DNA from: an uncultured Nitrospira sp.
Lineage (GTDB): Bacteria; Nitrospirota; Nitrospiria; Nitrospirales; Nitrospiraceae
Reading direction: 5' to 3'
NCBI GenBank assembly: GCA_964481215.1
Contig: CAYZTJ010000004.1
Coordinates: 36,202 to 68,201, forward strand
DNA: 32,000 nt
Under the pieces are notes generated by a model. That model worked only from the letters and a program-made list of their open reading frames with translations, searched no databases and was not told where the DNA came from. Position numbers and translations under genes: made by a program. This document shows positions 346 through 31,842 of the stretch, piece by piece; positions within the stretch are counted from its first letter, which is position 1; each line of letters starts with the position of its first letter.

Positions 346-2124
346 ATGGCACTCGTGGACTCTCTTCCCGCGCGAGCCGACGATCACGATGCGAAGTCGC
401 TCCGGGATCTGTGGCAGATGTTTCGCCGTCGGCGCTGGATCGTCGGCGCGGTCGGCGCCGGGATTTTCCTGTCCGGAACGGCGCTCGCCCTATTTTGGCC
501 GCCGGTGTACCAATCGAAAGCGACGATCCTCATCGAGGAACAGGAGATTCCCCCCGATCTGGTGCGGTCGGCGATTACCAGTTACGCGGATCAGCGGATT
601 GAAACGATCAAGCAGCAGGTGATGAGCCGGTCCACTTTGTGGAAGATCATCGAGCAATACGGCCTGTATGAGTCCCTGCGCCGTCGGCACTCGACCGAAG
701 AGGTGCTGGAGCAGTTCGTCAAGGACATCCATTTGAATGTGATCAACGCCAAAGTGATCGACCGTCGTTCTCAAGTGCCGACGCAGGCGACGATCGCGTT
801 CACGTTGTCGTATGACGGAGAAACGCCGGAGCAGGCTCAGAAGGTGGCCAACGAACTGACGAGCTTGTTCCTCGGGGAGAATCTCAAGACCCGCGAGCGC
901 CATGCGCAAGAGACGACGGCGTTTCTCAAACAGGAAGCGGACAGTCTGTCCAGGCATATCGAGGAACTGGAGACGAAATTGGCCGGGGTCAAACAAAAGG
1001 CCGACGGCGCCCTGCCTGAACTGGTGCAGCTCAACATGCAACTGATGAATCAGGCGGATCGGGAACTGATCGAGGTGGATCGAGAAATCCGCAGTCTCGA
1101 AGAACGCCGACGGTATCTCGAAGGCGAACTGGCGACCTTGAAACCGAATACGCCGATTCTGGCCGCCGGCGGAGAACGGATTCTGGATTCAGGAGAACGT
1201 CTCAAGGCCTTACGCGCGCAACATGCCAGCGCCTCGGCCTATCTGTCGGCGGAGCATCCGGACATCATCAAGATGGAGCAGGAGATCACGGCGTTGGAAC
1301 GGGAGGTCGGCGCGCCGGCTCCCGCGGAGGATGTGGCGAAACGGCTCAACGGTGAGCGGGCCAGCCTGGCGGCCCTCAAAGAGCGGTTCGGTGTGCTTCA
1401 TCCGGACGTGGTTCGGTCACGGGAAGTGGTCGCCTCGCTCGAAGCGGAGTTGCAGCGTATCGCGTCTCAGCCGGTGAAGGCGCTTCCGATCAAGCCGGAG
1501 AACCCCGCCTACATCAACATCCAGGCCCAGCTGTCCTCGACGACCGCGTCACTGCAAGCGCTGAAAGACAGCCGCGGCTCGATCAAGCGGCGGACGGAAG
1601 AGTATGCGAAACGGCTCGAACGCATGCCGCAGGTGGAACCCGAATATCTGGATCTCCAACGCGACCGGGAAAGCTCCGTTCGGCGGTATCACGAGATCCG
1701 GAACCGGTTGATGGAAGCGCAGGTGTCGGAAGGGCTGGAGATTCAGCGGAAGGGCGAACGGTTCTCGTTGATCGATCCGCCGGATTTGCCCGAACGGCCC
1801 GAACGTCCCAATCGTCCGGTGATCGTGATGCTGGCGGCGCTGTTGGCTTCGGTCGGCGGGCTTGGGGCAGGGGCGGTTACGGAGCAAATGGACGAAACCA
1901 TACATGGCCCGCGCCAGCTGGGACGGGCAGCCGGGGTGCCTCCGTTGGCCGTCATTCCGCATGCGCCGGAGGAAGGAGCATTGCCCGATAAGTGGCGGCG
2001 GGGAGCGGCGATCGGGTGGATCGGCGCGGCCGCGGTCGTCGTCCTGCTGGTCGTCAGTTATCTCTCGTCGATGCCCCTCGACGTGGTGTGGTATGCCGCT
2101 CTGCGTAAACTCGGCCTGACGTAG
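346..2124 (+). CDS. Polysaccharide co-polymerase / chain-length determinant (Wzz/GumC type, as found in PEP-CTERM-associated EPS loci)
   Basis: ATG 346 is preceded by AAGGAGG (335-341). N-terminal Wzz-like TM segment (RWIVGAVGAGIFLSGTALALFWPPVYQSKATILIEEQ), long central coiled coil, C-terminal TM (VIVMLAALLASVGGLGAGAV). Confidence 0.8.
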   Translation: MALVDSLPARADDHDAKSLRDLWQMFRRRRWIVGAVGAGIFLSGTALALFWPPVYQSKATILIEEQEIPPDLVRSAITSYADQRIETIKQQVMSRSTLWKIIEQYGLYESLRRRHSTEEVLEQFVKDIHLNVINAKVIDRRSQVPTQATIAFTLSYDGETPEQAQKVANELTSLFLGENLKTRERHAQETTAFLKQEADSLSRHIEELETKLAGVKQKADGALPELVQLNMQLMNQADRELIEVDREIRSLEERRRYLEGELATLKPNTPILAAGGERILDSGERLKALRAQHASASAYLSAEHPDIIKMEQEITALEREVGAPAPAEDVAKRLNGERASLAALKERFGVLHPDVVRSREVVASLEAELQRIASQPVKALPIKPENPAYINIQAQLSSTTASLQALKDSRGSIKRRTEEYAKRLERMPQVEPEYLDLQRDRESSVRRYHEIRNRLMEAQVSEGLEIQRKGERFSLIDPPDLPERPERPNRPVIVMLAALLASVGGLGAGAVTEQMDETIHGPRQLGRAAGVPPLAVIPHAPEEGALPDKWRRGAAIGWIGAAAVVVLLVVSYLSSMPLDVVWYAALRKLGLT

Positions 2125-2143
2125 TAGGACAAAGGAGCGCGCG

Positions 2144-2971
2144 ATGGAAGACTTGCAAGAAGCGCTGGAACGGTTTCGGACCGAAGGGGGGCGGGCAGGT
2201 CGGGGCGCCGGTCGCTCGACGCTCGTACCTGTGCCTCCGCCGATCGTGTACAGCCGGACGAAGGTCCTGGAATGCCCGGAAGACCTGCTGCGGCGCGGTC
2301 GAATTGTCGCGGGATTCGATCGCGGGCCGTTCGTCGAAGGCTACAATCTGCTGCGGACCCAGGTGCTTCATCGCCTTCGGGAGAACGGCTGGAATGTCCT
2401 TGGCGTGACGAGTCCGAACGAACGGGAAGGCAAGACGCTCACGGCCGCGAACCTGGCCATCAGCCTTGCCATGGAGGCGACGCAGACGGTCCTGTTGGTC
2501 GACGCCGACCTTCGGAAACCGGGGATGGACCGGCTGTTCGGGATGGACAAGCTTCCGGGACTGGCCGATGTGCTGCTGGACGAGATGCCACTCGAAGAGG
2601 CCCTGGTGCATCCCGGCATCGGTCGTTTGGTGGTGCTGCCTGGTGGACGGGCGGTGCCTCGCTCCGCTGAAACCCTGACCTCGCCCCGCATGACCGCATT
2701 GGTGCACGATCTCAAACACCGGTATGAGTCGCGCATTGTGGTCTTTGACTTGCCGCCGGTGCTTACGAGTGCGGATGTACTGGCCTTCGGTCCCTCCCTC
2801 GACGCGATCCTGATCGTCGCGGGGGACGGCGTCACGCGCCGGACGGACGTGGAGGAATCGATTCATCGCCTGAAGGGTGCTGTGCCGATCATCGGGACGG
2901 TGCTCAACCAAGTGGGACGGGAAGATAGAGCCCGTCGCAACGGCCGCCTGTCCGCGGCCGAGTCACCCTGA
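2144..2971 (+). CDS. CpsD/CapB-type P-loop ATPase (BY-kinase-like), encoded separately from the co-polymerase
   Basis: Walker A SPNEREGKT, Walker A' LLVDADLRKPG, Walker B IVVFDLPPV. The C-terminal tail (NQVGREDRARRNGRLSAAESP) has no tyrosine. Confidence 0.8.
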   Translation: MEDLQEALERFRTEGGRAGRGAGRSTLVPVPPPIVYSRTKVLECPEDLLRRGRIVAGFDRGPFVEGYNLLRTQVLHRLRENGWNVLGVTSPNEREGKTLTAANLAISLAMEATQTVLLVDADLRKPGMDRLFGMDKLPGLADVLLDEMPLEEALVHPGIGRLVVLPGGRAVPRSAETLTSPRMTALVHDLKHRYESRIVVFDLPPVLTSADVLAFGPSLDAILIVAGDGVTRRTDVEESIHRLKGAVPIIGTVLNQVGREDRARRNGRLSAAESP

Positions 2972-2990
2972 GCAGGAGGCTGGAACGATC

Positions 2991-4388
2991 GTGTACGAAT
3001 CGCACTATGGATTCCGGATGCATCCGTTCTCCCTGGTTCCGGATCCCGGGTTTCTCTATCTCGGCCGGCGCCACAAACTGGCGCTGAGTCTCCTGGAGTA
3101 CGGGCTGCTCAACCGCAGCGCATTCAGCGTGATCACAGGGGAGCCTGGCACGGGGAAAACGACCCTGCTCAACACGATCCTCGATCGGTCTGAGCGCGAG
3201 CTTACGTTGGGCGTTCTCTCACATACCCATGTCGGACTGGGGAGTCTGCTGCCCTGGGTGTTGATGACGTTCGGGATCGACGGAAAAGGCATGGACAGTG
3301 TGGAGCTGTATCGCGCCTTCGCCGGGTTCTTGAATCAGGAGCACGCCAAACATCGCCGGGTCGTCCTCGTGGTTGACGAGGCGCAAAACCTCGGCTCGGC
3401 GATGCTCGAGGAACTGAGGCTCCTGTCGAATCTCAACGACGGGCGGCGCCAACCGCTACAGATTATCCTCTCCGGTCAGCCGAATCTCCGGACCCTGCTG
3501 AAACAGGGCGAGTTGGTGCAGCTCGCGCAGCGCATTTCCGTCGACTATCACCTGGAACCGTTCGGCGAAGAAGAGACGCCGGACTACATCCGCCATCGCA
3601 TTCGAGTGGCCGGGGGGCCGGCCGTGTTGATGACGGATCTCGCGTGCCTGGTGGTTCACCGAATCACTCACGGCAACCCGCGACTCATCAATCAGGTCTG
3701 CGACGTCTCCTTAGCCTACGGATATGCGGCCAAGGCGCCGTACATCACGTCCCATGTCGTGCGTAAAGCGGCGACGGATCGCCGCGCCAATGGGATTTTG
3801 CCGTTGGCGGACGACGACTCGTTCCCTCCGTCGTCCAATGAGGAGCTGTCGGGTGAACAGCAGCAGTTGGCCCTGTTCCTTCGACCTGCGGCGTCCCAGC
3901 CTGCCGCCGAGCCGCCCGCGCAGCCGAACCGATCCGGTCGGGCGGTCTACGAGCGCGGCGTCGCGTTCAGGGAGGCCGGAGCCTTCAAACAGGCGATCGG
4001 CTATTTCCAACAGGCAACCGGCGATCCAGCCTATGCGGTCAGGTCCAAGACCCAGATCGCGCTCTGTCAGCACGCCAGCGGACGCCTTGTGGAAGCGATC
4101 GCCGCGTTTCGCAAACTCTTGGACAGCCGGCAGGGGACGGAGCATGAGACACGACAAATCCGCTACCTTTTGGCCCGGGCACTGGAATCAGCGGGCCAAC
4201 GGGATGAGGCGCTCGTGCAGTATCGCGCGTTACGGGAGGAACAATCCGACTACCGGGATGTCGCAGATCGATTTCGTCGACTCTCCGATCCACGAGGCAC
4301 AACGGTAATAGCGACCTTATCGAGTCGCGCGTGGATGCGCTCGATCTCGCGAAACTGGATTCAGCTCCTGCGCAGTTCGTTTTCGTAG
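2991..4388 (+). CDS. ExeA-like AAA ATPase with C-terminal TPR region (PEP-CTERM/EPS-locus secretion ATPase type)
   Basis: GTG 2991 follows AGGAGG (2974-2979) and gives an N-terminus (M)YESHYGFRMHPFSLVPDPGFLY typical of ExeA-like proteins. The longer ATG 2877 start would overlap the previous gene by 95 nt. Walker A GEPGTGKTTL, Walker B VVLVVDEAQNL. TPR-like C-terminus (AFKQAIGYFQQA...). Confidence 0.75.
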   Translation: MYESHYGFRMHPFSLVPDPGFLYLGRRHKLALSLLEYGLLNRSAFSVITGEPGTGKTTLLNTILDRSERELTLGVLSHTHVGLGSLLPWVLMTFGIDGKGMDSVELYRAFAGFLNQEHAKHRRVVLVVDEAQNLGSAMLEELRLLSNLNDGRRQPLQIILSGQPNLRTLLKQGELVQLAQRISVDYHLEPFGEEETPDYIRHRIRVAGGPAVLMTDLACLVVHRITHGNPRLINQVCDVSLAYGYAAKAPYITSHVVRKAATDRRANGILPLADDDSFPPSSNEELSGEQQQLALFLRPAASQPAAEPPAQPNRSGRAVYERGVAFREAGAFKQAIGYFQQATGDPAYAVRSKTQIALCQHASGRLVEAIAAFRKLLDSRQGTEHETRQIRYLLARALESAGQRDEALVQYRALREEQSDYRDVADRFRRLSDPRGTTVIATLSSRAWMRSISRNWIQLLRSSFS

Positions 4389-4560: not shown

Positions 4561-4626
4561 GTAAACTCGTTACGAGTTAACCAATCCTGGAACCCATCGT
4601 AACCTCGCTGTAATCGTCGGTTTCTA
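4561..4626 (+). promoter_or_regulatory. Cluster of GTAAAC/GTTACG/GTTAAC/GTAACC/GTAATC hexamers upstream of the porin gene; candidate response-regulator (Pho-box-like) site
   Basis: GTAAACTCG 4561-4569, GTTACG 4569-4574, GTTAACC 4576-4582. TTAACC 4577, GTAACC 4599, GTAATC 4610 and TTTCTA 4621 share an 11-bp register. The cluster lies 50-115 nt upstream of ATG 4675. Confidence 0.35.
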
Positions 4627-7922: not shown

Positions 7923-7990
7923 GACTCCTCCGTCATTTCATTGACTCCGATATCATCGCCGCACCGTAGAGACCGCGGATTGCCGAGGGG

Positions 7991-8815
7991 TCAATGCGCG
8001 GTTAAATCGACGTTAACTTCCCCGGCTTTGTTCCACGACTTCGTCCGGCTTGCGGCGTCAAGTAACAGGCCAAGAGCTTCGACCAGACCGTCCACATCGT
8101 CGTGTACTCGGCGCGCCTTCTTTCGCGCCTTGCGCCACGCTGCCGTGATTACGGGTTGCGAGGTCAGCGACAGCGCCTTCCCCAGCTTGCGAAAGGCGGC
8201 AAGATCCTCGTAGGCACCGAGACGTCGTTGGAGGCGCTTCAAGCTCGGCACGATCCGCTCCACGCCGGGCGGAGACGTCCATTCCAGCTGATATCGGAGT
8301 TGTTTCATTCGAAGACGGAGCCGGTGTAACGCCTTTCGCTTCGGCTTGCGGGGCAATCGGCGGCCCATCCTGGTCAATTTCTCTCGATGACCCCGCCAGT
8401 TCCGTTCGAGCTGGACGCGGCCGATCCGCTGTTTCTCGAACGAAAGGCTCGCCAGTCCCCGATGAATCGACTCGAACAGGCGAGGGTGGTCGAGTTGCGC
8501 CGTCCGTTGCCGGATCAGGGCGCGAACCTTGCGCCGATCCGCTGCGGGAGCCCGGTGTTTGGCCAGCCACACATCGAAGACCTGTGCCGATCGAAGCGGG
8601 CTCAACTCGGAGATCTCGGCGCCGAGGGCCGACGCCTCTTGTCGCGCGCCGATCAACCGGAGCCACGCCTGCAACCGCCGGATCCCGACCCGCAGGCGGT
8701 GAAGGTGATCGGTGTCGACGACACGTGCTTGTTGCAATCGGTTCAACGACGTCAGCAACGTCCGGGACAGCCTCAGCGCTCGATCCGACGACGGAGTCCT
8801 GCCTCTGACGTTCAT
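7991..8815 (-). CDS. CHAD domain protein (polyphosphate-associated family)
   Basis: Arg/His-rich helical repeats HRLRVGIRRLQAWLRL and LHRLRLRMKQLRYQLEW typical of CHAD. Lies 68 nt upstream of pstS on the same strand. Confidence 0.7.
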   Translation of the reverse strand: MNVRGRTPSSDRALRLSRTLLTSLNRLQQARVVDTDHLHRLRVGIRRLQAWLRLIGARQEASALGAEISELSPLRSAQVFDVWLAKHRAPAADRRKVRALIRQRTAQLDHPRLFESIHRGLASLSFEKQRIGRVQLERNWRGHREKLTRMGRRLPRKPKRKALHRLRLRMKQLRYQLEWTSPPGVERIVPSLKRLQRRLGAYEDLAAFRKLGKALSLTSQPVITAAWRKARKKARRVHDDVDGLVEALGLLLDAASRTKSWNKAGEVNVDLTAH

Positions 8816-8866
8816 CTGCGCCCGCCTTTCCCGTCACGAGGGTAAGTCGAGATCATTGCCATCGGA

Positions 8867-8904
8867 TTAACAACATATTAAGGAACGGTTACGGCACGTT
8901 TCTA
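8867..8904 (+). promoter_or_regulatory. Four TTAACA-like hexamers with 10-11-bp periodicity in the divergent CHAD / regulator intergenic region
   Basis: TTAACA 8867, TTAAGG 8878, TTACGG 8889, TTTCTA 8899. Confidence 0.35.
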
Positions 8905-8930
8905 GCTGGATATGCCGATCCCATGACGAT

Positions 8931-8959
8931 GTTACGTAGTTTTAACAACATTTTAATGG
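8931..8959 (+). promoter_or_regulatory. Second TTAACA-type repeat set, near-duplicate of 8867-8883
   Basis: GTTACG 8931, TTAACA 8942, TTAATG 8953. TTAACAACATTTTAATG (8942-8958) matches TTAACAACATATTAAGG (8867-8883) at 15 of 17 positions. Lies 50-80 nt upstream of ATG 9010. Confidence 0.35.
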
Positions 8960-9009
8960 TGGATTCGCTTGCCCAGCGTATAGTTACCCGCGACGTTGGG
9001 GGAGGCCTC

Positions 9010-23004: not shown

Positions 23005-23102
23005 GGGAGTTCATCCGAGGGCGCTGCTGAACCGTTATGTCGACCCAGCCTTACGGGATTCTCAAGGTGGTGTTAAATGTTGTTTACAACCAGGGCAAGG
23101 AC

Positions 23103-24264: not shown

Positions 24265-24663
24265 GAGTCGTCCAGTCCGCCAATGTAATACCCTGTTTCC
24301 CGCAGAAATGGCTGCTTCACCGTTGTAACGCAGGTCAAAAGCTCTCGAGCCTGCTCGACTCTTACACGGTCTTCGAGATCGGCACCGCGCGACGTTCTAT
24401 CGGATGCTCACATCTTTAATGTGATCGTTACGCGTTATTGAGGCGGGACAGATCGTGCGGTAACGAACCAATGCGAGAGTGCCCTCGGTTAGGATCCTAA
24501 CACCATCACAACTTGTGCCGTCACATGCTGCACCTCGTCGTAATGGAGAGGATGCCATGCTACGGTTGTGCGCAAAACCATCCGGTGCAGCGTCGCGTCG
24601 CTGCATAACTCGCCGCTCTCGGTGGTATCGGGAGTCGTGCGACTGATTACAAAGGAGACAGTG

Positions 24664-26184
24664 ATGAAGAAGCTGAAACAGCAGGTTTCGAAATGGAGCG
24701 TGGCGGCGAGTAAGGTCGGTTTGGCCGCGGCGATGCTGGCGATCCCGGCGCTACCGGTGCTAGCCGACGACGAAGATTCTCACGATTACGGCGCGAGGGT
24801 TGAGCAGCGATTGAAGAACAGCTCCATGCATTGGTTTGGAATTCAGGGGCCGTTGGATGCTTCGGCGTCCGCGACAACCGGGGATTACCGAACGCCGGAA
24901 CAGAAGGCTCAGGACCAGGTGTCGCTGGCTCACAGTCTGAAAGCCGAATATGTCACACGCAATGTCGGGAACGCTGCCGACATGTTCGCCTTCTGGCCGA
25001 ACGACGACAACCCGACTCACCTTATCTTTTGTATCGAGGGTGGGCGCCAAGACCTTGGGACGTTCCTCCCGGGTGGACTGGTGAAGAAGTTTAATCCGAG
25101 CGTGCAGAGTGTTGCGTTAGCTGACGGTGCTGTTCAAACGATTCTCCGCGGCATGACCGCGTGCGACGGCATTCGTCGGACCCCTTGGGGAACCATTCTG
25201 GCCACCGAGGAAACGTCGAACGGCGGAGCCTATGAGATCATTCGTCCCTTGCAGCAGCTGAATCACACGATTACCGACCGCGCGCTGGGGACCGTCGTGG
25301 ATCAGAATGGTCTTGCCTCTCTCGCGATCGCCAAGCGGACGGCGTTGCCGACGATGGCCTGGGAAGGGTTGGCGGTGTTGCCCTCCGGAGTCGTGATCGC
25401 TGGAGACGAATTGCGACCCGGTACCGGAACACCGGATGTCGACGGAGGTGCAATCTTCAAGTTTATTCCCACCGTTCCTCGGACGGCTCAGGGGCTGGTC
25501 TCGAACTTGACGGAGTCACCCCTGACAGCCGGGAATGTGTATGCGTTGCGGATGAGCTGCACGACCGGCGTCCAATATGGTCAGGGTTGTGAAATCGGGA
25601 GCGGAGCTTGGATCGCCGTGGCGGCGGCGACTGCGCGTGCCGATGCCGATAAATTGGGTGCCACCGGCTACTACCGGCCGGAGGACTTGGAACAGGACCA
25701 GGAGTATAAGGGCGAAGGAGTCCGATTCTGCTGGACCAACACGGGGGAGAGCGACATTGCCAACTATGGCGAAGTTCTCTGCGGAGTCGATCGTGCACCG
25801 TTGGTCGCCGATCCCAATCAGCAGACTGTGACGGCCAATCGGTTTGTGGAAGGAGATGCCGATTTCAATCAGCCGGACAACTTTGCATTTCAGCCGAAGA
25901 CCGGCATCCACTATGTGATCGAAGATAATCCCAACGGCGATATCTTTGCCTGTCTGCCGGACGGTGCCGATCGGGATATCAAGACTGACGGATGCGTGAA
26001 AATCCTCTCGGTCAAGGATTCTTCAGCGGAGCCGACGGGTTTCAAGTTCACAGCCGATGGACGGACGGCCTATCTTGCCATCCAACACTCCAATGATGGC
26101 AAGATGCCGAAGTTCGATGACTATGCGACGGACGACATCATCAAGATCAGTGGGTTCAAGATCCCACATCGCTTCGAACGATAG
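24664..26184 (+). CDS. Secreted DUF839/PhoX-like beta-propeller protein (candidate alkaline phosphatase)
   Basis: AAAGGAG lies before ATG 24664. Sec signal (VGLAAAMLAIPALPVLA). RRTPWGTILATEETSNGGAYEI, QPDNFAFQPKTGIHYVIEDNPNGD and AEPTGFKFTADGRTAYLAIQHSNDG resemble conserved PhoX/DUF839 blocks. Confidence 0.5.
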   Translation: MKKLKQQVSKWSVAASKVGLAAAMLAIPALPVLADDEDSHDYGARVEQRLKNSSMHWFGIQGPLDASASATTGDYRTPEQKAQDQVSLAHSLKAEYVTRNVGNAADMFAFWPNDDNPTHLIFCIEGGRQDLGTFLPGGLVKKFNPSVQSVALADGAVQTILRGMTACDGIRRTPWGTILATEETSNGGAYEIIRPLQQLNHTITDRALGTVVDQNGLASLAIAKRTALPTMAWEGLAVLPSGVVIAGDELRPGTGTPDVDGGAIFKFIPTVPRTAQGLVSNLTESPLTAGNVYALRMSCTTGVQYGQGCEIGSGAWIAVAAATARADADKLGATGYYRPEDLEQDQEYKGEGVRFCWTNTGESDIANYGEVLCGVDRAPLVADPNQQTVTANRFVEGDADFNQPDNFAFQPKTGIHYVIEDNPNGDIFACLPDGADRDIKTDGCVKILSVKDSSAEPTGFKFTADGRTAYLAIQHSNDGKMPKFDDYATDDIIKISGFKIPHRFER

Positions 26185-26350: not shown

Positions 26351-26566
26351 CTATCGAAGTGGCGCTTGTCGGCGCTTCCACCGGTCGCTGCCGAAAATAG
26401 GAGTGCGAGGCCGTTTCGTCGGGGCTGCGGGCCGAGAAGTGCGATGAAAGAGAATCTTGCCGTCGGTAAGGTCGCCGCAATGGATGCACCGGTAGGCCAC
26501 GGCTCGCATCCCGCCATCCAACATGGTCTCCAGAACCCTTAGCCCGGCACAGCGCCCGCATTGCAT
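26351..26566 (-). CDS. 72-aa zinc-ribbon protein (CxxC...CxxC), basic tail; coupled to dksA; paralogue of 27645-27863
   Basis: GGAGGG (26571-26576, inside TAAGGAGGG with the dksA stop TAA at 26579-26577) lies 4 nt before ATG 26566, which is 10 nt after the dksA stop. Product MQCGRCAGLRVLETMLDGGMRAVAYRCIHCGDLTDGKILFHR... Confidence 0.6.
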   Translation of the reverse strand: MQCGRCAGLRVLETMLDGGMRAVAYRCIHCGDLTDGKILFHRTSRPAAPTKRPRTPIFGSDRWKRRQAPLR

Positions 26567-26576
26567 GCTACCCTCC

Positions 26577-27047
26577 TTAGTCCATATCAGGGAGACAAAG
26601 ACGTTCACGTCGTGTGTGGCCGCTTGCGACGAGGCCCGCTCGTTCATTCAAGGCCTGACAGGAGACGCACAGCACGGCGGACGGCTGGACTCGCAGTCGG
26701 GCAAATGGAATATCCTCTCCGCAACGGATGCAGAGCCCGTAGGCGTTATGCTCCATGTGGGCCAACGCGTTCTCGATGTCCCGCAGTTGTTCCCGGAGTC
26801 GCGCCTTCCCGATCAAGGTCAGCTCCTGCTCTCGATCCATCGAGGCTTGATCCATCACGTCCGAGAGGAGTCCTCCGCCCGTTCTTCTCACGTCGTCGAG
26901 CGTCATGCGTCGACGCAACATCGCCTGCTGACGCTTCAATTCGATCCACAGCTTCATGTAGAGAGTCTGATTCTTCCGTGACAGCCCTGAGCGAAACCGC
27001 GGCTTCGCTTCAATGATATCGTTCGAGAGCATTTGGGAGTACAGCAT
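26577..27047 (-). CDS. dksA: DksA/TraR-family C4 zinc-finger RNA polymerase-binding regulator
   Basis: AAAGGAGG lies before ATG 27047. Coiled coil with tip motif DVMDQA (DxxDxA) and C4 finger CIRCGEDIPFARLRVQPSAVLCVSCQ. Confidence 0.75.
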   Translation of the reverse strand: MLYSQMLSNDIIEAKPRFRSGLSRKNQTLYMKLWIELKRQQAMLRRRMTLDDVRRTGGGLLSDVMDQASMDREQELTLIGKARLREQLRDIENALAHMEHNAYGLCIRCGEDIPFARLRVQPSAVLCVSCQALNERAGLVASGHTRRERLCLPDMD

Positions 27048-27244
27048 GGGCGCCTCCTTTCGTCCTGGCTACGGCTGCTTTCTTAGCAGGTAGGTGGCAC
27101 ACCCAATTCATGGGAGGGTCAAGTTTCAGTAACGACGGGTGGCAGGTTGGCGCGGTTGTTGAACTGGGGGCTCGAGTGAAAAAAGTTAACGAATCTGTAA
27201 CAACGGCTTGTCGCGGATGTAATCAGGGTGGGGGACGATGTGTT

Positions 27245-27631
27245 GTGATTTACTGTTGTCCTCTCAGACGGTTCCTCTGCGTGTTCCTCCTTCTCGTTCT
27301 GGCTGCAGCCGGCTGTACGAGCCCTCATCAGTACATCGAGATCACGTGCGCGAAGTTGGCAGGGGATACGATGGTGGATCGAGAGGCGGCGATTCAGTGT
27401 CAAACGTTCAAGCAAACGGAAGCGGCGACAGCAGCCTATAACGAAGCCACGTTGCTGCTGAGATCGTATCGAGCTTGCCTGGAAAAGTACGAGGCGACAC
27501 CGGCGCGGGCCAAGGAATACTGCGCGCAGTATCCCAAGGCGTTGCAGGATATCGGCCTGCAAGTGAAGGAGCCGATCGAGCCTGCCGCCACGAGCGCAGC
27601 TCGGAGAGATAGTCCGTCGACGAGACGTTAA
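27245..27631 (+). CDS. Small lipoprotein of unknown function
   Basis: Lipobox LAAAGC after a hydrophobic stretch (FLCVFLLLVLAAAGC). The start is uncertain; GTG 27245 was chosen. Confidence 0.45.
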   Translation: MIYCCPLRRFLCVFLLLVLAAAGCTSPHQYIEITCAKLAGDTMVDREAAIQCQTFKQTEAATAAYNEATLLLRSYRACLEKYEATPARAKEYCAQYPKALQDIGLQVKEPIEPAATSAARRDSPSTRR

Positions 27632-27644
27632 TCCCTGTCTTCCC

Positions 27645-27863
27645 TCACACAGGTTCGATTGCTTCCGTGAGGGGCGTATCGCCCCACACTCCTTCCTCTT
27701 CGATCGGATCAGTGGTGACGACGCCGATACGATTTCGCAGGATTACGCCGTCCATCAAATCTCCGCAGATCACGCAACGCCACCCGACGGCGTGAATGTC
27801 CACGTCCCGGAACTCTTCGGAGATGACGAGTCCACCGCATCGCCAGCATCCGGTCGTCGCCAT
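27645..27863 (-). CDS. 72-aa zinc-ribbon protein, acidic tail; paralogue of 26351-26566
   Basis: AAGGAGGTG (27868-27876) lies before ATG 27863. Product MATTGCWRCGGLVISEEFRDVDIHAVGWRCVICGDLMDGVILRNR... Confidence 0.6.
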   Translation of the reverse strand: MATTGCWRCGGLVISEEFRDVDIHAVGWRCVICGDLMDGVILRNRIGVVTTDPIEEEGVWGDTPLTEAIEPV

Positions 27864-28179
27864 GAACCACCTCCTTGCTCGCAAGAAATTGTCGGTGGAC
27901 ACCACAATGTACGCACCACGGTAACAGCGTGGCGTTACGAACAAAGAAATCTGAGGTTAAGAACACGCAAAGTGTCTTGCCGTGTGGGACAGGGAGTAGT
28001 GGGAGCGGATCGATTGCTCAATGGATTGCGACATGTCGGTACCGTCTTTCCCAACATGGAGAAAGACGTACTTAAGGTGAACACATAGTCAGCAGAACAT
28101 TTGGTAACAGGGCGACTGTAATGTCGTGCTGATAAGATCTAGACCTCGACCGATACGATCCAACATAGAGGAGTTCAAG

Positions 28180-28883
28180 GTGAAACGGTTGCTCCAGAGT
28201 TCGAGAGGAATACTCGCCGGCGTACTCTCAATGCTATTGGAGATCTTGGCGCCGAATCCGGCTACCGCGGCTCTTGTCACTTATTCGTTTGAGGGCACAT
28301 TGCTGCAAATTGATGCTCCACTTTCGGGTATTTGGAGTGCCGGACAGGCCTTTTCGGGGTACTGCTCTTTTGAATCGAGCACGGGGGATTCCATTGCTCT
28401 TTCAGGTATGGAAGCACTGTATGAGCGATCCCTCAGGATATCCGAGCTATGATCGGTTCCTACCATATCACCAGTGGGGTCCCGGCGCAGATTGGCGGGC
28501 TGGGAAGCATTCGGATCAACAACAATGGTATTGCAGCTCTTGATTATTATCGCGTCGATATCATGACGTACGGAGCACCCATCGGGTCCCTAATGCCCCT
28601 ACTTGCTCTTGTCGATTTAACTGACCAGGCTGGCACGGCCTTGACCAGCAAGGCCCTCACCTCGGAGCCTCCCGTACTGTCGGCCTTTGCTCACCGAACC
28701 ATGACTTTCCAGTTCTCAGGTTTCAATCCAGGTAGCGGTGAGTTCCTTCAAGCCAATGCTGTAGGACAGCTTACGTCATTGGCCGCCGTTCCCATACCCG
28801 CTGGGGCAGTACTGTTCGGATGGGGACTTATCGGCCTGACGGGGTATCGGCGACGGAATTCCCGCAGTCAGAGTGGATTCTAG
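28180..28883 (+). pseudogene. PEP-CTERM-anchored secreted protein gene split into two frames (28180-28452 and 28449-28883)
   Basis: The first ORF (GAGGAG + GTG 28180) carries the signal peptide (GILAGVLSMLLEILAPNPATAA). The second has none but ends in the sorting signal VPIPAGAVLFGWGLIGLTGYRRRNSR. The second frame is open from 28425. Confidence 0.55.
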
Positions 28884-29218
28884 GGCCGGTTTCTCTCGGG
28901 TTTGGATTTGGTGTCCATCAGAGGTCTGCAGTCTAGGCGGTTCCACTGCTGGATCTTCTCCTGCTGATCGAACATGATGATGTAAGAAGCGCACTCAGTT
29001 TCTTTTCCTTGAAAGTCGTATTCCCACACCTGTCCGCCCTGCTTCGTCCGCTTCAGCCGTTGCGGGTAGCCGAACTTGGTGATGAGCTCCTCCTGTGTCG
29101 CCTGCTCCAATGAATCTTCCAGGTATTCGACTCGATAGGGTGAGGAGCAGGCCTGGAGCAGCGCCAACAAGCCGACGAGGCTGACGATGAAGGGGACGCA
29201 GCGCGACGGTTTCTCCAT
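28880..29218 (-). CDS. Small lipoprotein downstream of olsA
   Basis: ATG 29218 gives MEKPSRCVPFIVSLVGLLALLQAC (lipobox LLQAC). Stop overlaps the PEP-CTERM gene stop at a shared CTAG. Confidence 0.55.
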   Translation of the reverse strand: MEKPSRCVPFIVSLVGLLALLQACSSPYRVEYLEDSLEQATQEELITKFGYPQRLKRTKQGGQVWEYDFQGKETECASYIIMFDQQEKIQQWNRLDCRPLMDTKSKPERNRP

Positions 29219-29250
29219 GCCGTCGAGGATGCCGAAAATCTCGGCCCAAT

Positions 29251-30084
29251 TCAAGCTGTCGTGATCGGTTGGCCAGGCCAATCCAGTGACGGATCGGCAT
29301 AGGGAGGATCCGTGAAGGGAGGCTGCGCCGTATCGCACAGCCTTGACAGAATCGCGAAGCGAGCCGTCTCGGAAAGCTGATGGCGATCAGCGCGTGATCC
29401 TTCGAGCGGCTCGGCAAAATGCAGTTCCAGCAGGATCGTGGGCTGGCTCATGACCCGCCACATCGAGGCCACGAGCGATTGATCTCCGACGAAGGCGGCA
29501 ATGTCCGTCACCCGGCCGAAGGAGTTTCTGAACCGGAGTGCGACGGGCCAGACGATCGCCTCGCCACTGACGGCAGGCTCAAGCAAGCCTGAATGGAAGT
29601 GCAGCACGGAGCGCCCATTCGACGTGGTGCCTTCCGGAAAGACGGCCACGCATTGTCCACGAGCCAAGGCCGTACGGACTGACCGGTTCGCGCGCACCAA
29701 TTGCCGAGGACGGTCTCGATCGAGAAATATCGTTCCGGTCTTTGCGGCAAGCCAACCGATGATCGGCCAATTTCTCACTTCGGATTTAGCGACGAAGCGG
29801 ACCCGCTTGACGGCGTTGATGGCGAGAATATCGATCCACGAAACGTGATTCGCGACGATCAGGATCGAAGAAGTCCATTGAGTTGGGATCTCGCCGGTCA
29901 CCCGAACACGCACGTTGAGGAAACGCAGCGCGTCATGGCACCAGCGGGAAATCACGCGGTCCCGGTCACTGGGTTTCATATAGGGAAACAGGACCGCCAC
30001 GGTCATGACGCCCTTGGCGATGTGCCGGAGGAGCTGGAGTCCACGAACGAGTGCCGTCAGGCTGCGGTGGATTCGGTCAAACAT
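29251..30084 (-). CDS. olsA: PlsC-family lyso-ornithine-lipid O-acyltransferase
   Basis: Acyltransferase motifs NHVSWID (HX4D) and FPEGTTS. Immediately downstream of, and overlapping, the olsB-like gene. Confidence 0.7.
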   Translation of the reverse strand: MFDRIHRSLTALVRGLQLLRHIAKGVMTVAVLFPYMKPSDRDRVISRWCHDALRFLNVRVRVTGEIPTQWTSSILIVANHVSWIDILAINAVKRVRFVAKSEVRNWPIIGWLAAKTGTIFLDRDRPRQLVRANRSVRTALARGQCVAVFPEGTTSNGRSVLHFHSGLLEPAVSGEAIVWPVALRFRNSFGRVTDIAAFVGDQSLVASMWRVMSQPTILLELHFAEPLEGSRADRHQLSETARFAILSRLCDTAQPPFTDPPYADPSLDWPGQPITTA

Positions 30085-30885: not shown

Positions 30886-30932
30886 CTGTAACTGGCAGGT
30901 AAACTCTCGATGTTCTCGGTGTAAACTCTCGA
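30886..30932. promoter_or_regulatory. Phased direct repeats upstream of olsB: CTGTAACT, then GTAAACTCTCGA twice
   Basis: GTAACT 30888, GTAAACTCTCGA 30899-30910 and 30921-30932 (offsets +11 and +22). Lies 55-100 nt upstream of olsB ATG 30833. Confidence 0.4.
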
Positions 30933-31022: not shown

Positions 31023-31730
31023 TTAGATGGCGGACTGATGCTCCTTGAGCTTGTAGCCGAGCGATTTCACCGACAGGATCACATCGTTCAAGACAGGCAG
31101 CTTCTGCTTAATTCTCCGAACGTGGACGTCCACGGTTCTCGTTGTTCCGTGATAATCGTATCCCCATACGCTGTTCAACAGCACATCGCGGGTCAGGACC
31201 CGCCCGGCATTCCGCAGCAAGTGCTCCAACAGCCCGAACTCTTTAGCCGTCAAACTCACCTCACGACCGTTGATCGTTACTTCATGGCGGGAGAGATCGA
31301 GACTGAGGGAGCCATAGCGATAGACGGCGACTTCACGTTCGGTAGATCGGTCGAGCCTGCGAAGCAGCGCCTTGACGCGGGCCACGAGTCCCCGAGGGCT
31401 GAATGGTTTTGTGACATAATCATCGGCCCCCAGCTCGAGGCCGACGACGGTGTCGGATTCCTCGGTTTTTGCGGTCAGCATGATAATCGGCAGCATGGCG
31501 GTTTGAGGGGCTAAGCGGACTTTCTTGCAAACCTCCAGTCCGTCGATCTCTGGGAGCATCAAGTCCAAGATTACGAGGTCTGGGTGCTCAGAACGGATTT
31601 GACGCAGCGCTTCGATGCCGTTCGACGCCGTAAGAGTCCTGAACCCTTCCTTCTCGAGGTACAACTTGACCAATTGAAGAATATCCCGTTCATCTTCAAC
31701 GATCAGAACTTTCTTACTCGTAGTCACCAT
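31023..31730 (-). CDS. Canonical OmpR/PhoB-family response regulator
   Basis: GAGGAGAG lies before ATG 31730. Receiver with all conserved residues (LIVEDE, VILDLMLP, IIMLTAK, YVTKPF) and wHTH (LTAKEFGLLEHLLRNAGRVLTRDVLL...VHVRRIKQKL). No histidine kinase in the window. Confidence 0.85.
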   Translation of the reverse strand: MVTTSKKVLIVEDERDILQLVKLYLEKEGFRTLTASNGIEALRQIRSEHPDLVILDLMLPEIDGLEVCKKVRLAPQTAMLPIIMLTAKTEESDTVVGLELGADDYVTKPFSPRGLVARVKALLRRLDRSTEREVAVYRYGSLSLDLSRHEVTINGREVSLTAKEFGLLEHLLRNAGRVLTRDVLLNSVWGYDYHGTTRTVDVHVRRIKQKLPVLNDVILSVKSLGYKLKEHQSAI

Positions 31731-31807
31731 GGTCTCTCCTCTTAAGAGCTGGGTCACGTCGAGGGATCATCTTTTGCAGACATTATCCAAACCAAAGCTG
31801 CGAAGGC

Positions 31808-31842
31808 GTTACGGATTTGTTAACCCGCTGTAAACTTACGAG
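31808..31842. promoter_or_regulatory. Three hexamers GTTACG / GTTAAC / GTAAAC at exact 11-bp spacing upstream of the PhoB-like regulator gene
   Basis: GTTACG 31808, GTTAAC 31819, GTAAAC 31830, followed by TTACGAG 31836-31842. Shares GTTAACC, GTAAACT and TACGAG with the porin upstream region (4561-4582). Confidence 0.4.

Follow-up and report, generated by a model that had tools for sequence, protein, structure and literature searches.

A DksA/TraR-family gene and two zinc-ribbon mini-protein genes in a predicted phosphate-starvation island of Nitrospira

Nitrospira are the main nitrite oxidizers of soils, fresh water and wastewater treatment, and their response to nutrient stress is poorly known. 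In Pseudomonas, the Zur-regulated DksA paralogue DksA2 clusters with paralogues of ribosomal proteins that lack cysteines, the common theme being independence from zinc. Here we describe a 32,000-nt stretch of DNA (hereafter the window) from an uncultured Nitrospira sp. (GenBank assembly GCA_964481215.1, contig CAYZTJ010000004.1, positions 36,202–68,201 of the forward strand), in which a gene of the DksA/TraR family is followed by a small zinc-ribbon gene (A), and a related gene (B) lies nearby. The locus resembles that of DksA2 in having a DksA paralogue that is probably under a nutrient-stress regulon beside small zinc-ribbon-type proteins. It differs in that DksA2 lacks the Cys4 set and belongs to the Zur regulon, whereas the DksA-like protein and the mini-proteins of the window keep Cys4 and the predicted signal is phosphate. 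Literature searches found no described pair of DksA and zinc ribbon and no Pho-regulated DksA paralogue. The features at the center of this analysis are:

27047–26577, minus strand: DksA/TraR-family gene, 156 aa, with tip motif DVMDQA and C4 finger CxxC-N17-CxxC.
26567–26579, minus strand: junction of the DksA-like gene and A, with the stop TAA at 26579–26577, then GGAGGGTAGC with the Shine-Dalgarno site GGAGG, and the ATG at 26566.
26566–26351, minus strand: small zinc-ribbon gene A, 71 aa, 216 nt counting the stop.
27863–27645, minus strand: small zinc-ribbon gene B, 72 aa.
27868–27876, minus strand: Shine-Dalgarno site of B, AAGGAGGTG.
27245–27631, plus strand: lipoprotein gene between B and the DksA-like gene, with a GTG start, a Shine-Dalgarno site, a signal peptide and the lipobox LAAAGC.

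The mini-proteins belong to a family that is new and uncurated; their predicted fold is a classical one. In the reading that we favor, A and B are small regulatory adaptors that would be made under phosphate limitation and act on the transcription apparatus; for this package as a whole we estimate a probability of about 0.45. The evidence comes from the conservation of the two genes, the modeled fold, the phosphate-related surroundings and the recurrence of the DksA-A pair in related genomes.

The 156-aa protein shares the CxxC-N17-CxxC finger and the DxxDxA tip with the DksA/TraR secondary-channel factors, and the open reading frame (ORF) that an earlier, first-pass annotation of this DNA had described, with DVMDQA and the C4 finger, is found where it was placed. 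Its residues 103–135 match Pfam PF01258 (zf-dskA_traR) with 49.8 bits against a cut-off of 24.9, and the match to the DksA N-terminal coiled coil (PF21157) is weak (13.3 bits against a cut-off of 27, E = 0.11). In 15 aligned Nitrospira orthologues the tip motif reads DPxDQA or DLxDQA and the C4 finger is kept. Because the scores for the canonical DksA equivalogs fall below cut-off (64 bits versus 115.5 for TIGR02420; 63 bits versus 105 for NF033459), sequence assigns the gene to the DksA/TraR family and it is to be kept apart from housekeeping DksA. Besides this large shortfall in equivalog score, it differs from the described factors in its setting, a phosphate-starvation island, and in the zinc-ribbon mini-gene that comes after it.

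Read off the sequence, the gap from the DksA stop to the A start is 10 nt, and the TAA stop, the purine-rich site and the ATG at 26566 are all as the first-pass annotation gave them. Of its statement that the two genes are translationally coupled, the spacing stands, and the coupling is a prediction from that spacing. It had given both products as 72 aa, which is wrong for A and right for B alone. The small lipoprotein gene that it placed between A and B is present, on the opposite (plus) strand; a minus-strand placing, considered in the course of our own analysis, was rejected, the tblastn matches there reflecting conservation of the antisense frame. Because the lipoprotein gene is on the plus strand, B is convergent with it and lies outside the DksA-A transcription unit, which is itself divergent from the lipoprotein gene. 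Scans of 25.9–28.7 kb for sigma-70 promoters, intrinsic terminators and Rfam families gave zero matches, and a search for a sigma-54 promoter 5′ of A or B found none present.

The core of A reads CxRCxG..(20)..RCxHCGD..D..I..[NH]R and is followed by a basic, Arg/Lys/Pro-rich tail with the motif RxRTP(I/V)(Y/F)GSDRWK; B joins the same core to an acidic, Asp/Glu-rich tail with a conserved Trp. In both proteins, 20 residues separate the two CxxC pairs. The resemblance noticed in the first-pass annotation, with 20 identities over an ungapped 40-residue core (50%), paired CxxC motifs and tails of opposite charge, was confirmed (pairwise BLASTP E = 2e-12).

Relatives were collected with a degenerate two-knuckle DNA pattern, which samples only members that combine a Cys spacing of 20 residues with R5, G8, R26 and [DE]35. 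It gave at least 119 loci from species-representative genomes, and 123 of the 128 loci then in hand hold a family ORF. These loci are 8-kb blocks in which the hit is not centered, and the genome-locus counts and absences given here are those among the matches listed. Clustering of the mini-proteins defines an A-clade of 46 members from Nitrospira, Nitrospiraceae and other Nitrospirota; B clusters broadly with the rest of the family, outside the A-clade. Six close homologues of A (49–83% identity) keep the tail as well as the core, and conservation in the A tail is 100% at R52 and R54, 89% at T55, 84% at P56 and 82% at R62. Across 38 A-clade genes the median ratio of nonsynonymous to synonymous substitution rates (dN/dS) is 0.26, with all 449 informative pairs at or below 0.57; between A of the window and its counterpart in L004 it is 0.125.

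For B, a word-index search with B alone returned B itself as the sole match, and a B-type profile led to 80 metagenome loci, which were fetched. The B-type orthologues (P0044, P0051, P0052, P0055, P0082, P0136 and L129–L132) keep the reading frame and the acidic tail, have an invariant W60, and show dN far below dS. The ribosome site of its own that the first-pass annotation had seen before B (AAGGAGGTG at 27876–27868) is kept as (A/C)AGGAGG(T/C)GG in 5/5 B-type loci. Purifying selection, which that annotation had named as a check, is thus indicated for both types. Conservation of frame, Cys ligands and Shine-Dalgarno sites, with dN/dS well below 1, identifies ORFs A and B as real genes. One observation could be cited for chance or non-coding ORFs, namely that a collection of 15 billion proteins, which does hold the DksA-like protein and B of the same 68-kb contig, lacks the exact 71-aa product of A. 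With hundreds of homologues keeping frame, Cys ligands and Shine-Dalgarno sites at dN/dS well below 1, such an explanation is refuted and retains next to no probability; A was probably left unannotated in the source record, or annotated from another start. An alternative start for A exists at the upstream ATG at 26647, giving a 98-aa ORF that overlaps the 3′ end of the DksA-like gene.

The first-pass annotation did not recognize the family and proposed profile searches. Run with HMMER and a small profile, these gave at least 1,783 representatives of 50%-identity clusters at E ≤ 1e-3 (42 at E ≤ 1e-10), nearly all of 45–100 aa, and no curated family. Its members come chiefly from Nitrospirota and from Thermodesulfobacteriota and other "delta" lineages, with transcription and signaling regulators as gene neighbors, and the source names of its members are without exception "hypothetical protein" or an evidently automatic ribbon-type label. 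No member was found in phage and plasmid collections. In an 89-member alignment C3, C6, C27, C30 and G31 are invariant, and R5, G8, D35, I38 and R42 are conserved in at least 90%. Pfam and NCBIfam scans of A, B and the 89 members gave nothing at curated cut-offs. The sub-threshold zinc-ribbon matches are scattered (best E ~1e-3 to 1e-4), among them the desulforedoxin knuckle and the TFIIB ribbon; RNA polymerase subunit P (PRK00398) matches 11 of the 89 members below threshold (best E = 2e-4). A profile search of PDB sequences gave no significant match (best E = 0.0087, rubredoxin knuckle only), and neither did Foldseek with an AlphaFold2 model against the PDB (best E = 0.6, Rpb9 and the Nudix ribbon on top). 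The family thus stays without a Pfam, NCBIfam or PDB match.

The AlphaFold2 model of A has strands at residues 9–17 and 20–27, a helix at 36–44 and a disordered tail, with a mean predicted local distance difference test (pLDDT) score of 85 and core values of 93–96; the model of B has the same topology, also with a disordered tail. A and B are accordingly modeled as C4 zinc ribbons, with two CxxC knuckles on a β-hairpin scaffold plus one helix, and the four Cys are predicted to bind Zn(II). In the A-type copy of metagenome contig L132 (6724–6945), CSRW replaces the first CxxC, so that one zinc ligand is lost, and the basic tail is kept. Two CxxC knuckles flanking a β-hairpin are also found in generic ribbons such as archaeal RNA polymerase subunit P/Rpo12, Rpb9/TFIIS, TFIIB, the Nudix N-terminal ribbon, ribosomal L33/S27e and rubredoxin-like knuckles. 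The family differs from these by a signature of its own, which has an R behind the first Cys and a G two positions past the second, together with [WR]RC and a helix with D..I..[NH]R. Among the longer members checked for fusions, P0014 is the sole informative case, a 142-aa metagenome protein in which an A-type ribbon is joined to a LuxR/GerE helix-turn-helix domain (PF00196, E = 2e-13); one HNH-repeat fusion was seen besides.

Four invariant Cys, an adjoining C4 zinc-finger gene and weak matches to rubredoxin and desulforedoxin could also point to zinc or redox handling, with the mini-proteins serving as Cys4 zinc buffers, stores or thiol switches in the manner of zinc-reservoir ribosomal protein paralogues. 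The strong conservation of the non-ligand helix face and of the tail motifs argues instead for specific macromolecular contacts, and no Zur-type or metal-homeostasis genes were seen in the neighborhoods surveyed, which makes this role very improbable.

The surroundings of the three genes provide the most useful new lead from the locus, a phosphate-regulon context. The window encodes an OprO/P-type porin, PstS, a CHAD protein, PhoX, OlsB/OlsA (ornithine lipid synthesis), a metallophosphoesterase, a GT4 glycosyltransferase, PEMT, a 770-aa class-III aminotransferase and a PhoB-like regulator. By gene content it is read as a PhoB-type phosphate-starvation and lipid-remodeling island. Two of its genes are placed as follows:

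24568–26184, plus strand: PhoX-family alkaline phosphatase gene (Pfam PF05787), convergent with A.
31023–31757, minus strand: PhoB-like OmpR-family response regulator gene (top NCBIfam match TIGR02154, 239.5 bits, cut-off 296).

PhoX is a conserved downstream neighbor in many A-clade loci, lipoprotein homologues are divergent from DksA in many Nitrospira loci, and an orthologous PhoB-like regulator lies upstream of the order c20-DksA-zinc ribbon in Nitrospira loci. The small lipoprotein c20 (28880–29338, minus strand; 4852–5097 in L132) is a conserved neighbor between the phoB-like and DksA-like genes in Nitrospira, and a predicted ORF, P0027, has a sequence like the C terminus of c20 directly before an A-type mini-protein. 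Elsewhere in the window, Wzz, ParA-like and AAA-TPR genes occupy 346–4388, and a PEP-CTERM protein gene at 28126–28883 (plus strand) is apparently broken by a frameshift, with the signal-peptide part at 28126–28452 and the C-terminal part, which ends in a VPIPAGAVLFGWGLIGLTGYRRR sorting signal, in a different frame at 28449–28883.

Repeats resembling Pho boxes recur across this island. In Synechocystis, the SphR box is built of at least three 8-bp CTTAACCT repeats, separated by linkers of 3 bp (PMC1906773). Aligning the upstream regions of B orthologues gave the motif cTTAAC-N16-CGTAAc. The form TAAC-N17-GTAA occurs four times in the window versus 0.10 expected (40-fold enriched), and each copy is aimed at a gene: the OprO/P-type porin (4675), an OmpA-family gene (23004), the lipoprotein and B. 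These sites lie in an 11-bp register as tandem units [C/T/G][T/G]TAAC[C/A]. The arrays most relevant here are:

27185–27225, plus strand: Pho-box-like array of four 11-bp-spaced units between the lipoprotein and DksA-like genes, 28.3 bits versus a null maximum of 16.4.
27932–27972, minus strand: Pho-box-like repeat upstream of B, CTTAACCT-cag-ATTTCTTT-gtt-CGTAACGC.
31795–31835, minus strand: array ~38 nt before the start of the phoB-like gene, 19.7 bits.

Of the units before B, the first matches the Synechocystis SphR box exactly (PMC1906773), and binding by the regulator of the window is a prediction. The GTTAAC units are palindromic, so that orientation is ambiguous at some sites. Because our scoring matrix was built from the porin, OmpA, lipoprotein and B sites, its top-scored sites include its own training set; independent of that training are only the pstS, CHAD and phoB-like arrays and those in other genomes. 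These three window arrays exceed the null maximum of 16.4 (CHAD 23.3, pstS 17.5, PhoB-like regulator 19.7 bits) and lie 38–55 nt before the start. Taken together, arrays stand 20–110 nt upstream of the start codons of B and of the porin, OmpA, lipoprotein, pstS, CHAD and phoB-like genes; besides the three listed above, their positions are 4576–4616 (plus), 7977–8017 (minus), 8853–8893 (minus), 8930–8970 (plus), 23048–23088 (minus) and 30887–30927 (plus). In other genomes, 15 A-clade loci carry an array directly upstream of DksA, scoring 18.7–26.0 bits with the window-trained matrix and at least 22 in all but one. Four of these are sense to DksA, 80–120 nt before its start (L018, L047, L049 and L066), and 11 point to the divergent lipoprotein. 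We had also considered TAAC-N17-GTAA as the −35/−10 of a promoter for an extracytoplasmic function (ECF) sigma factor; that reading was set aside as the less probable one because of the 11-bp periodic extra units, the SphR-box identity and the independent arrays before the pstS, CHAD and phoB-like genes.

The outer two units of the B repeat are conserved in 5/5 B-type loci, 70–107 nt before the start, and the middle unit is degenerate; the case for a Pho box at B is made by these conserved outer units, the array score there being marginal. The PhoB-like regulator is probably the binder of the repeats. On this pattern B and the lipoprotein gene are predicted members of the Pho regulon, DksA-A probably likewise, and the arrays provide a candidate PhoB-site consensus for Nitrospirota.

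A phosphate-starvation setting would also suit a family of polyanion binders, in which the A ribbon and its basic tail would act on RNA, DNA or polyphosphate and the acidic B tail would be a mimic or competitor; in variants of this proposal they would, during phosphate starvation, be RNA chaperones, associate with ribosomes or belong to polyphosphate granules. CHAD-domain (polyphosphate-associated) genes are present in the window, L001 and L002, short Lys/Arg-rich tails end most subfamilies, Arg residues of the core are conserved, and there is weak fold and sequence likeness to ribosomal and RNA polymerase zinc ribbons. However, a 47-aa subfamily is nearly tailless, so the tail cannot carry the core function of the family, there is no significant match to nucleic-acid-binding families, and the B-type tails are acidic. 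We therefore consider polyanion binding unlikely.

The genes that accompany the family bear on the proposed role as regulatory adaptors. A DksA-like ORF lies on the same strand within ~1.1 kb upstream of A in 26 of the 31 informative A-clade genomes among the loci listed, with DksA-like genes recounted by hidden Markov model (HMM) over all ORFs; none is nearby in the other five, nor in L001 and L002. The order DksA then A persists while the flanks vary, with PhoX, ArsC/Acr3, c10, c11 or c13 downstream of A and c20 or the divergent lipoprotein upstream. The distant metagenome contig L132 carries B, DksA and A contiguously in this order, with ATGA shared between the end of DksA and the beginning of A; identities to the window are 65% for PhoX, 40% for DksA, 44% for A and 56% for B. 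In L130, B is followed by an antisense lipoprotein gene and then the start of DksA. Linkage to dksA outside the genome of the window, another check named in the first-pass annotation, is thus present in the Nitrospiraceae A-clade and in L132.

The spacing between the two genes varies. The gap is 26–52 nt in six loci, among them L004 (40 nt), L027, L060, L103 and L112 (Nitrospira moscoviensis, NZ_CP011801, around 4.448–4.449 Mb); where DksA is the immediate neighbor, the usual spacer to A is 139–242 nt and contains a conserved double hairpin (L018, L033, L034, L043, L044, L047, L066, L070, L084, L096, L110 and L127). The second stem, GCTTGTCCCTTCT..AGAAGGGACAAGC, has 12 pairs with compensatory changes at three. 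The element, which the window lacks, has neither a U-tract nor an Rfam match; termination, attenuation or transcript processing are possible roles. In 13 A-clade loci (L001–L003, L005–L007, L023, L028, L036, L045, L084, L107 and L115), a polysaccharide deacetylase gene of the XrtA system (PEP-CTERM/exosortase; TIGR03006, 298.7 bits versus 276.2) lies 12–13 nt upstream of the A-type gene, with DksA further upstream in some and absent in others. Most Nitrospira thus have either the hairpin spacer or, with the deacetylase gene inserted, ~1.1 kb between DksA and A. This tight deacetylase-A pairing competes with the DksA-A pairing. The DksA-A pairing is real and recurrent in the Nitrospiraceae lineage, it is neither obligatory nor family-wide, and tight DksA-A coupling is limited to some lineages.

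Outside the A-clade, the recurring neighbor theme is transcription and signaling regulators rather than DksA. In the 47-aa type of Thermodesulfobacteriota, the gene order is a sigma-54 response regulator, the mini-gene, a CheY-like receiver, an LPG_synthase_C-domain gene and a methyltransferase or FMN reductase gene; among the loci listed, the sigma-54 response regulator is upstream in 15 and the CheY-like receiver downstream in 17. A canonical sigma-54 promoter, TGGTA(T/C)-N5-TTGCT, stands 40–60 nt before the mini-gene in 26 loci (158 nt in L039) and was seen only in this Thermodesulfobacteriota subfamily; the loci include L012, L021, L026, L037, L048, L058, L059, L061, L067, L071, L072, L077, L088, L091, L095, L099, L105, L106, L111, L113, L116 and L117. 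Members of the "VRCPRCDGAMVFERF" type have a divergent T2SS-E/MshE ATPase gene on one side and genes for an M23 peptidase and SecA on the other, those of the "MTCERC..GYRCLLCGD" type lie near CBS, CMD and DsrE-like genes and a GAF-sigma-54 activator, and NarL-type regulators adjoin the mini-gene in L075, L078 and L110.

Several observations weigh against a phosphate-induced adaptor tied to DksA: (i) About 160 non-A-clade family loci are without a DksA-like ORF (HMM E ≤ 1 or regular expression, loci listed), the exceptions being B-type L130 and L132 and a second copy in L060. (ii) The hairpin and the deacetylase gene part DksA from A in many Nitrospira. (iii) The window is without a sense-oriented Pho box before DksA, the box of the divergent lipoprotein standing there alone. 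(iv) The B array scores 15.9 bits, just under the shuffled null maximum of 16.4. (v) The A-clade genomes are related, so that the counts are not independent and synteny may be partly inherited. (vi) The neighborhoods come from crude greedy ORF calls in 8-kb chunks, in which antisense ORFs were sometimes picked. The first-pass proposal that the family is functionally tied to DksA thus holds for 26 of 31 A-clade genomes and the L132 triad and fails for the ~160 other loci.

The first two of these points, the tight deacetylase-A spacing and the informative A-clade genomes without DksA nearby are also what would be expected if the A, B and DksA-like genes were adjacent through common regulation and inherited order only, with a role of the ribbon unrelated to DksA. 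The separate transcription of B fits this as well, and the short contigs L129 and L131 show no DksA-like ORF within them. Yet the DksA-A order is kept while both flanks vary, A follows DksA closely in several lineages (by 10 nt in the window, through the ATGA overlap in L132 and by 26–52 nt elsewhere), and the triad of B, DksA and A occurs in two lineages whose proteins are only 40–56% identical. We regard a shared regulon without functional contact as a serious, if tentative, possibility.

Under the adaptor reading, each mini-protein would consist of a ~45-residue C4 ribbon, formed by a two-knuckle β-hairpin and a helix with a D..I..[NH]R face, followed by a disordered, lineage-specific tail. 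In Nitrospiraceae, the A-type gene would be the distal gene of a unit headed by the DksA/TraR-family gene inside the PhoB-type phosphate island, with DksA and A presumably co-transcribed, and B would be made from its own promoter region with the Pho-box-like repeat, probably under PhoB induction. The mini-proteins may contact the DksA-like factor, RNA polymerase or a response regulator, and the oppositely charged tails of A and B may tune or oppose each other's binding. A narrower version, in which PhoB-induced A and B attach to the DksA-like protein or to the rim of the secondary channel of RNA polymerase and turn its activity on and off, seems to us decidedly unlikely.

The locus offers a widespread, uncurated zinc-ribbon family of 45–100 aa that is partly missed by annotation pipelines, A itself being absent from the protein collection. 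In addition, a DksA-family paralogue seems to be part of the phosphate regulon and not of the general stringent response, and with the candidate Pho-box consensus for Nitrospirota, regulons could be predicted in the genomes of uncultured organisms. Should the mini-proteins bind to the DksA-like factor or to RNA polymerase, secondary-channel regulation would gain a new layer; A and B would then be a new class of partners for secondary-channel factors, reprogramming transcription in phosphate-starved, nitrite-oxidizing Nitrospira, and the wider family would comprise small, general modulators able to combine with different transcription regulators, sigma-54 activators and those of the NarL or CheY type among them.

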